Origin: an uncultured Alphaproteobacteria bacterium
GTDB taxonomy: Bacteria; Pseudomonadota; Alphaproteobacteria; RF32; CAG-239
Direction of reading: 5' to 3'
Assembly (NCBI GenBank): GCA_934271715.1
Contig: CAKQRZ010000006.1
Span: 30,218-94,217 of the forward strand
Length of the DNA stretch: 64,000 nt
Shown here: one piece after another, positions 40,910 through 41,224 of the stretch
Layout: each line of letters opens with the position of its first letter
Numbering within the stretch: position 1 is the first letter of the stretch
Made by a program: the position numbers and the translations under genes
The notes under the pieces: model-generated
Told to the model about the DNA's origin: nothing
Database searches by the model: none
What the model saw: the letters and a program-made list of their open reading frames with translations, nothing else

Positions 40910-40925
40910 CTTATTCCTCCTATTA

Positions 40926-41101
40926 TGTGTAAAAAAAACGACCGTTATTTTTACACACTCAAAACAAGCTGCTGAAATGTTGCAAAATTATGAAAAAAAT
41001 AACGCAAAATTATTATGTTATTGCATTTTGCAGCAAACCGTGATACATTACTAAAAACAGCCTAAAAACTGTCCCTTTTAAACGGTCGTTTTTTTTACAC
41101 A
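40926..41101. promoter_or_regulatory. candidate invertible promoter (or MITE-like element) Y: perfect 21-bp inverted repeats flanking 134 bp
   Basis: IRL at 40926-46 has its exact reverse complement at 41081-101. Inside is TTGCAT (41021-26), a 17-nt spacer, then TACATT (41044-49) on the + strand. Geometry is the same as element X. Confidence 0.5.
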
Positions 41102-41133
41102 TTCCAGGCTTTTCCTATGCCTTGATTTTGCGG

Positions 41134-41163
41134 TTGACTTATGGAGTAAGGCTGGTATAGAAT
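41134..41163 (+). promoter_or_regulatory. sigma70-like promoter of the P4 cassette
   Basis: TTGACT, 18-nt spacer, TAGAAT, upstream of the AGAGGAAAG RBS and the ATG at 41201. Confidence 0.55.
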
Positions 41164-41224
41164 AAATCTAGTAAACAACTTAATTTAAGAGGAAAGAAAG
41201 ATGAAAAATAAGCTATTCAAAGGT

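Follow-up and report, generated by a model that had tools for sequence, protein, structure and literature searches.

The element examined here, called Y, occupies positions 40925..41102 of a 64-kb stretch of contig CAKQRZ010000006.1 from an uncultured human-gut alphaproteobacterium (the window, whose positions serve as coordinates throughout). To its left lies the gene for a Cys-rich secreted protein (39140..40909, minus strand, 589 aa), which has a signal-peptide-like N-terminus and belongs to the 'CFLPDGSCGTGK' family (the Cys-rich 'CFLPDxSCGTGK' or CFLPD family), and to its right the pilin-like gene P4 (41201..42342, plus strand). The left arm of Y, IRL (ATGTGTAAAAAAAACGACCGTT, 40925..40946), is a perfect 22-nt complement of the right arm, IRR (41081..41102), and the repeat search places 134 nt between them (40947..41080), a putative invertible segment. 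Such arm matches have a chance expectation of 0.00 in 100 dinucleotide-preserving shuffles of the window, and the 21-mer contained in the arm is common to more than 130 loci of gut Alphaproteobacteria. Inside the interior, a promoter-like motif P1 (TTGCAT-17-TACATT, 41021..41049, plus strand) points to P4 and away from the Cys-rich gene, and P4 has its own sigma-70-like promoter outside the repeat (TTGACT-18-TAGAAT, 41134..41163, plus strand), which matches the consensus at 10/12 positions. An initial annotation made from this sequence had placed both promoters at these positions, and it had also put the left arm 16 nt from the start codon of the minus-strand gene, which is correct for the 21-mer at 40926-46 and becomes 15 nt with the 22-mer. 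The ribosome-binding site (RBS) of the Cys-rich gene lies in this gap, at 40916-40921.

A second element, X (32358..32535), is a paralogous cassette whose arms (32358-32379 and 32514-32535, 1 mismatch) are also 134 nt apart, so that the shared geometry described in the initial annotation is borne out. X lies upstream of a pilin-like gene (31584-32342, minus strand) and has its own P1 (TTGCAA-17-TAGACT, 32454-32482, plus strand), while a convergent Fic gene ends on its far side. The arms of X and Y are essentially identical and the interiors have diverged, as had been stated, to 76% identity (102/134) with no net change in length; in the flanks, 54/60 positions match on the left and 33/60 on the right.

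The initial annotation had overlooked that the left arm of Y is half of a 32-nt palindrome, TGTGTAAAAAAAACG-AC-CGTTATTTTTACACA (40926..40957), whose two half-sites surround a central AC (40941-40942) and which we consider a candidate recombinase crossover site. The right site (41070..41101) has a perfect outer half, CGTTTTTTTTACACA, and a central GT (41085-41086), and its inner half, TGTCCCTTTTAAACG, is degenerate; the undegenerate counterpart of this half-site is TGTGTAAAAATAACG. Across the family, this feature separates two subfamilies: symmetric copies have full palindromes at both ends, whereas asymmetric copies, including X and Y, have one degenerate inner half-site. At the left site, GTGTAAAAAT+AACGGTCG is kept in all aligned copies, and among the asymmetric copies a TAAA..GGAC block is conserved at the right site, the degenerate half reading TGTCC[C/A]TTTTA. 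Crossover would presumably take place at the site centre (AC/GT). The layout may be read as two 15-nt half-sites about a non-palindromic AC, or equally as 13-6-13, and is compatible with a serine invertase without proving one.

In total, more than 130 loci (referred to as L001 and so on) were retrieved from uncultured gut Alphaproteobacteria. Scanning one genome per species for the 21-mer gave at least 80 loci in about eight metagenome-assembled genomes (MAGs, named by contig prefix), with at least 25 loci carrying the arm in CAKQDU alone among the matches listed, and a metagenome scan for the RBS flank plus the arm (CTCCTNNNN+IR, IR being the inverted repeat) added 51 further junctions. The MAGs with this repeat are labelled Alphaproteobacteria, apart from several that are called 'Bacteroidaceae bacterium', '[Ruminococcus] gnavus' or 'Eubacteriales', probably through misnaming or because their bins are mixed. 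The cassette has a fixed position, 15-16 nt before genes for pilin-like or Cys-rich secreted proteins, and in asymmetric copies the palindromic ('ATTTTTACAC') end is always the one next to a gene's RBS and ATG. Among the 107 RBS-adjacent genes, 81 are pilin-like and most of the others encode Cys-rich proteins of the CFLPD family. On the far side, many cassettes lack a gene altogether, and roughly a third of the copies show an 'L gene - cassette - P4-type gene' layout. The Cys-rich family stands behind such elements at 10 or more loci other than Y; 48 homologues of the Y-linked protein were found, all unnamed, the protein itself has no match in Pfam or NCBIfam, and 100%-identical copies occur on Hadza and other gut metagenome contigs. 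One 76%-identical homologue (L141:1-266) has no cassette and instead an ordinary-looking promoter region by the end of a tRNA gene.

Short terminal inverted repeats of 22 nt, uniform length, dozens of copies per genome and the many contigs that end at or in the element would also suit a ~178-bp non-autonomous transposon, that is, a miniature inverted-repeat transposable element (MITE) whose promoter-like sequence is incidental. The Correia elements of Neisseria, which are ~100-160 bp long, occur in many copies, have ~26-nt terminal inverted repeats and can carry promoters, resemble the cassette in these respects. The present elements differ from them by spreading with gene paralogues, by precise inversion between homologous loci (see below), and by lacking target-site duplications, which are absent in 88 elements apart from one chance 4-mer. 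Homology between copies runs past the arms, into the leader-coding region on one side and ~30 nt beyond the right arm on the other, and together with the missing duplications this indicates that the copies spread with their genes rather than as a MITE. Since, in addition, position and polarity are fixed relative to the RBS and ATG of paralogous genes, and no transposase is associated with the elements, we rejected the transposon explanation, which we regard as highly improbable.

The internal motif is conserved as well. A -35 element TTGCA[A/T] occurs in 84 of the 87 complete elements and is followed 17 nt on by TAnnnT in 80 of them, and the whole motif, TTGCA[A/T]-N17-TAnnnT, keeps a constant distance of 53-54 nt to the end of the interior. 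Within the -10 element, T1, A2 and T6 are retained and the middle positions vary (TAGACT, TACATT, TACACT, TATACT, TACCAT and others), as would be expected for a -10 box. Arm spacing is also constrained, being 134 nt in 41/56 pairs and 133 nt in 9/56. The initial annotation had argued from conserved arms, spacing and promoter for selection on function, and the larger family agrees with this view, with spacing of 133-134 nt in 50/56 and the motif in about 80/87. P1 may be the active promoter.

In order to look for inversion, we compared homologous loci whose flanks were aligned in one orientation, and scored the identity of the interior in the same sense and as reverse complement. Assemblies give only the consensus (majority) state, in which a minority orientation is invisible, and this limits every one-orientation result given below. 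Inverted interiors were found in the symmetric subfamily, which occurs in the MAGs CAVEOB, CAVIDY, CAVGVF, CAKQDU and CAVKTH. Between L010 and L069, the left flank is 98.7% identical and the identity of the interior rises from 70.7% in the same sense to 95.5% when one copy is reverse-complemented. L019 and L079 have flanks of 90% and 89% identity, with interiors at 69% versus 90%; L033 compared with L058 and L064, within one MAG, gives 66% versus 99%; and L035 (CAVKTH) compared with L059 (CAKQDU) gives 61% versus 80%. The breakpoints fall within the repeats, and the pairs come either from different MAGs or from paralogues in one MAG. Such precise flips are not expected of a MITE. The L019/L079 cassette precedes a gene of the same Cys-rich CFLPD family as that next to Y, and the other flipped loci precede other secreted-protein-like genes. 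Altogether, the conserved motif faces the gene in about 5/13 symmetric copies. CAKQDU, the home of L059, also carries many asymmetric copies, so the flip of L059 relative to L035 indicates that the inversion machinery has worked in lineages with asymmetric copies.

A candidate for this machinery is a gene for an Mpi-like serine recombinase on the contig of L075 (L075:1958-2605, minus strand, 215 aa), the sole suitable contig in 1 Mb of retrieved loci, which comes from the MAG most like the window. Its product matches the NCBIfam model NF009949, 'master DNA invertase Mpi family serine-type recombinase', with 275.8 bits (cutoff 272) and an E value of 2e-82 over profile positions 3-197 of 203, and the gene lies 1.7 kb from the element at L075:118-293. 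Homologues at 75-97% identity are widespread, and NCBI gives several of them the Mpi name in Alphaproteobacteria MAGs. In two assemblies (L075 and L138), the gene stands beside a radical-SAM/SPASM gene (L075:3205-5565) and an uncharacterised 306-aa gene; in other species its surroundings resemble mobile elements and include genes for DNA polymerase A and a large serine recombinase. Flips at matching loci and an Mpi-family recombinase on one contig make the family look like Mpi-type invertible promoters, and we consider that there is good evidence for invertible promoters as the members, or the ancestors, of this family.

Several observations weigh against extending this conclusion to Y itself. 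In the asymmetric subfamily, no flip occurs in ~95 gene-adjacent junctions (44 genome pairs and 51 metagenome junctions, 45 of the latter readable and 6 cut but consistent), and P1 points away from the adjacent gene in the asymmetric junctions examined. Y has the same orientation in five assemblies (the window, L001, L002, L139 and L140) and X in two (the window and L143); the exact flipped X/Y junction (CCTATT+IR+TAAAA) has 0 matches in metagenome contigs; and further copies of Y and X found by exact-protein look-up are all in the native orientation among the matches listed. The difference in flipping between the symmetric and asymmetric subfamilies is real, and with ~5/13 symmetric copies flipped and no asymmetric ones, the asymmetric form inverts rarely, is strongly biased, or is fixed. 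No recombinase was detected in the window, either by phmmer with Hin, TnpR, XerD and FimB sequences or by inspection of all open reading frames (ORFs) of at least 110 aa. Near the Mpi-like genes of L134-L138 there are no repeats, so that the linkage of gene and element comes from L075 only, and the Mpi-like gene is tied to the sites by one case of physical proximity plus the family annotation. P1 itself scores 7/12 against the sigma-70 consensus in Y (7-8/12 across the family) and is absent from the output of a generic promoter scan, which reported, over 40850-41260, P4's TTGACT-18-TAGAAT as the sole site. Finally, gene-facing candidates exist in many pilin-type copies, namely TTGnnn-18-TATATT in 43/76 asymmetric elements and TGGACA-17-TATAGT in 21/76, X carrying both, and the label 'OFF' for the present orientation is therefore insecure for the family. 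The initial annotation had presented Y as a possible switch by inversion; inversion holds for family members flipped at homologous symmetric loci, while Y and the whole asymmetric subfamily were seen in one orientation. It had also held that inversion would be refuted if only one orientation were ever observed and the Cys-rich gene were transcribed from a promoter outside the element; for Y, the comparison of assemblies indeed gave a single orientation, in agreement with the first half of that condition.

These results raise the alternative that the asymmetric subfamily no longer inverts, its inner half-site having been replaced, and that the arms now serve as operator sites flanking a static divergent promoter region, with the gene read from a gene-facing promoter. 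Consistent with this, the missing flips contrast with those of the symmetric copies, the degenerate half-site is itself conserved and in many copies constitutes the -35 of the TGGACA-17-TATAGT candidate (10/12), and the second gene-facing site, in the form TTGCCN-18-TATATT, is present in the 43/76 copies and in X. Moreover, almost every copy is followed by a gene with an intact ORF, which must therefore be expressed somehow. Y, however, has no gene-facing site by the same criteria, a generic scan finding none in its present orientation, and the outer 21-22-nt arms are perfect in more than 100 copies from several species, as expected of a recombinase site and unexplained by decay. The outward P1 is kept even where nothing lies downstream, as in X, where it faces the 3' end of the Fic gene, which is hard to explain unless P1 sometimes turns, and the L059/L035 flip involves a MAG rich in asymmetric copies. 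We therefore hold a static region to be rather unlikely, but a serious competitor.

With some caution, we lean towards Y being an Mpi-type promoter inverton that is parked with its promoter away from the Cys-rich gene and flips rarely or with a strong bias, P4 being controlled separately. In this proposal, the ~178-bp cassette would consist of two sites built on the 21-22-nt arm TGTGTAAAAAAAACGACCGTT, with palindromic half-sites about AC/GT, enclosing a 133-134-nt segment with one sigma-70-like promoter, TTGCA[A/T]-N17-TAnnnT. It would lie 15-16 nt before the RBS and start codon of a gene for a surface or secreted protein, Cys-rich for Y and type IV pilin-like for most copies, and the likely invertase would be a dispersed serine recombinase of the Mpi family with its gene at another place in the genome. 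That this Mpi-like enzyme acts on the arm sites is plausible, and Y itself may still invert, probably rarely or with a strong OFF bias. Since P1 is aimed away from the Cys-rich gene, this gene would be OFF at present; inversion would bring P1 to ~70 nt upstream of the Cys-rich ATG and turn the gene ON, creating the junction CTCCTATT+IR+TAAAAGGGACAG.

P4 would be switched on its own, by its own promoter and by slippage of a (TC)n tract. The tract in its leader-coding region, (TC)7 at 41224..41237 (plus strand), follows the ATG at 41201, and as read P4 stops after 18 codons, the present frame ending at 41257, while the pilin-like ORF goes on in the +2 frame to 42342. A continuous ORF exists at 6 or 9 tract units only, with the mature part G|RSMIEML starting at 41701. 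The leader MKNKLFKG precedes (TC)n, and the frame from tract to pilin motif is open in 14/14 loci; among these 14, n=6 is in frame (L119, 233 aa), n=7 is in +2 (11 loci) and n=8 in +1 (2 loci). The orthologous loci of Y in L139 and L140 differ in this tract, with 7 and 6 units, respectively. A tract inside the leader whose unit number changes between samples implies that P4 is under the control of slipped-strand mispairing, and from its sequence P4 is a slipped-strand contingency gene that is currently OFF. Tracts of (TC)7-8 are found in the window at 33870-33883, 41224-41237 and 52950-52965, each in a short conserved leader (MKNKLFKGLSLSL...) before the ORFs 34011-34691, 41461-42342 and 53093-53737, respectively; all three are presently out of frame, and 6 or 9 units would restore them.

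The initial annotation had suggested a toggle in which one invertible promoter serves the Cys-rich gene or P4 in turn. P1 does point at P4 at present, no intrinsic terminator was predicted within the cassette or between P1 and P4, the 'L gene - cassette - P4-type gene' layout, with a Cys-rich gene in the first place at Y, recurs as described above, and a toggle architecture does occur in the family, as two loci (L008:3359-3523 and L036:1675-1861) have a variant cassette between two divergent Cys-rich genes, in the same orientation in both MAGs. Against this stand the 10/12 promoter that P4-type genes have outside the cassette, which recurs beside many family members, and the frameshift of the (TC)7 tract, which keeps P4 OFF whatever its transcription. 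The far-side gene is often absent, as at X, and no flip was seen at any locus of the toggle layout. The claim is thus a weak one, and we judge a true toggle to be improbable.

The P4-type promoter occurs without a cassette at Z (52807..52828, minus strand), a lone right arm and fifth arm copy in the window. Z keeps ~26 nt of interior and is followed by a P4-like promoter, a leader, a (TC)8 tract and the pilin-like gene 53093-53737. It stands directly after the terminator-like hairpin of the gene 52317-52718 and looks like a deletion-truncated cassette; L076 is similarly truncated.

The assignment of P4 as a pilin, made in the initial annotation, stands in part. The prepilin-type N-terminus G|RSMIEMLGVLAIIGVLSVGG is invariant in five window paralogues and present in 81/107 cassette-linked genes, and the window contains a Peptidase_A24 (type IV leader peptidase) gene at 15221-15934. 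The AlphaFold2 model of mature P4 is confident (predicted local distance difference test score, pLDDT, 80.8) and begins with a helix of about 55 residues (4-58), after which comes a beta-sheet. Nevertheless, P4 and its paralogues have no match in Pfam, NCBIfam gives only sub-threshold GspH and PpdD matches to P4 paralogues, and a Foldseek search of the model against the PDB returned nothing with an E value below 0.01 and no pilin. The term 'pilin-like' is thus justified only by the N-terminus and overall architecture, because neither a family nor a fold match was found. The prepilin leaders are long, with 167 codons in P4, 68 in the 53093 gene and ~32 in cassette-linked genes, and contain repeat-like segments such as 'LLRRYTPRNDxCS' (41201-41700; 52927-53131). 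The leader of one paralogue (12424-13113), MYKNFEKG|RSMIEML, is short and looks canonical, and this gene has neither cassette nor tract.

On the scale of the genome, these features might represent a two-tier phase variation over dozens of pilin-like and Cys-rich surface proteins, with at least 25 Mpi-type invertons per genome and (TC)n tracts on further paralogues. The asymmetric class, being almost exclusively one-way, would then be either a rate-tuned rare-ON class, through which each cell expresses one or a few loci nearly exclusively, or sites co-opted as static operators. We put this forward as a tentative possibility, with chances somewhat below even.

The best-known case of promoters inverted by a master serine invertase is that of the Bacteroides capsules. 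The Mpi-type segments of B. fragilis are shorter than 200 bp, similar in size to the present cassettes, and Mpi is said, in work of Krinos in 2001 and Coyne in 2003, to control the invertible promoters of the capsular polysaccharide loci. If ARACGTWCGT is taken as the consensus of Mpi sites, the sequence here, AAACGGTCGT (arm core AAACG-GT-CGT), would resemble it. The B. fragilis reference genomes show mixed orientation states, whereas the dominant subfamily here has one orientation in every assembly. Both systems have many short promoter segments flanked by inverted repeats, scattered over the chromosome upstream of surface-structure genes, and would share a dispersed master serine invertase, the recombinase found here passing the NCBIfam Mpi-family model. 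They differ in the host, which is an alphaproteobacterium and not a member of the Bacteroidota, in the promoter, which is sigma-70-like (TTGCAA-17-TAnnnT) and not of the Bacteroides TAnnTTTG type, and in the cargo, which consists of single pilin-like or Cys-rich genes and not of polysaccharide operons. They also differ in number, as at least 25 copies occur per genome here and Mpi of B. fragilis inverts 13 regions (PMC4747536).

The fimS switch of Escherichia coli, inverted by FimB and FimE, is likewise an invertible promoter just upstream of a fimbrial (pilus) subunit gene that gives ON/OFF phase variation, and its strong OFF bias, due to FimE, offers an earlier example of a population held largely in one state. 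Nevertheless, fimS has adjacent tyrosine recombinases, 9-bp repeats, a 314-bp segment and one locus, whereas the present family has 22-nt arms, dozens of loci and no adjacent recombinase that we could find. P4 and its paralogues resemble the opa genes of Neisseria, which have (CTCTT)n in the region coding for the signal peptide, in that a short tandem repeat within the leader-coding region sets the frame through its length; in the P4 group this length varies between samples (7 versus 6) and most copies are out of frame. Here, however, the repeat is the dinucleotide TC with 6-8 units, the host is an uncultured commensal alphaproteobacterium, and promoter invertons occur in the same gene family.

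The kind of system is therefore already known, and what is new is the host lineage, the cargo, the copy number, the asymmetry of the sites and the pairing with dinucleotide-repeat switching. Our results suggest the same logic for an uncultured alphaproteobacterial lineage that is common in Hadza and Nepali gut samples, where it would serve a very large repertoire of pilin-like and Cys-rich secreted proteins and be joined with dinucleotide-repeat frameshifting. If this is true, the surface of a poorly known gut commensal would be under strong diversifying pressure (immune, phage or adhesion), and symmetric and asymmetric sites would offer a natural contrast for how site architecture sets the rate or bias of inversion. 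It would also affect the rules of MAG annotation, with regard to long leader ORFs, to frameshifted pilin genes that are not pseudogenes, and to contig breaks at cassettes.

At one further locus (L006:1470-1645), which has no homologous locus for comparison, the conserved promoter of an asymmetric cassette faces a gene for a 404-aa polytopic membrane protein; there the inverted repeat extends to 38 nt, RBS included, and the opposite flank keeps a relic of the RBS without a gene. A ~55-nt palindromic repeat is present at 40789-40843 and 41624-41690, in frame in the leader-coding regions of the two opposite-strand genes beside Y. It is read in both senses, as 'APLAPVILGPVPRILLQR' in the Cys-rich gene and 'GLHRPCCNKILGTDCASRPSMTGARGAN' in P4, and these peptides recur in many cassette-linked leaders. 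This repeat recalls the Rickettsia palindromic elements and creates a spurious 152-aa ORF (41280-41738, minus strand). An Rfam gathering scan of 31000-54000 found no known RNA family besides 6S RNA. This 6S RNA (38839-38995, plus strand; a full-length match to RF00013 at 58.6 bits) has zapA on one side and the 3' end of the Cys-rich gene on the other. The window also encodes TrcR.

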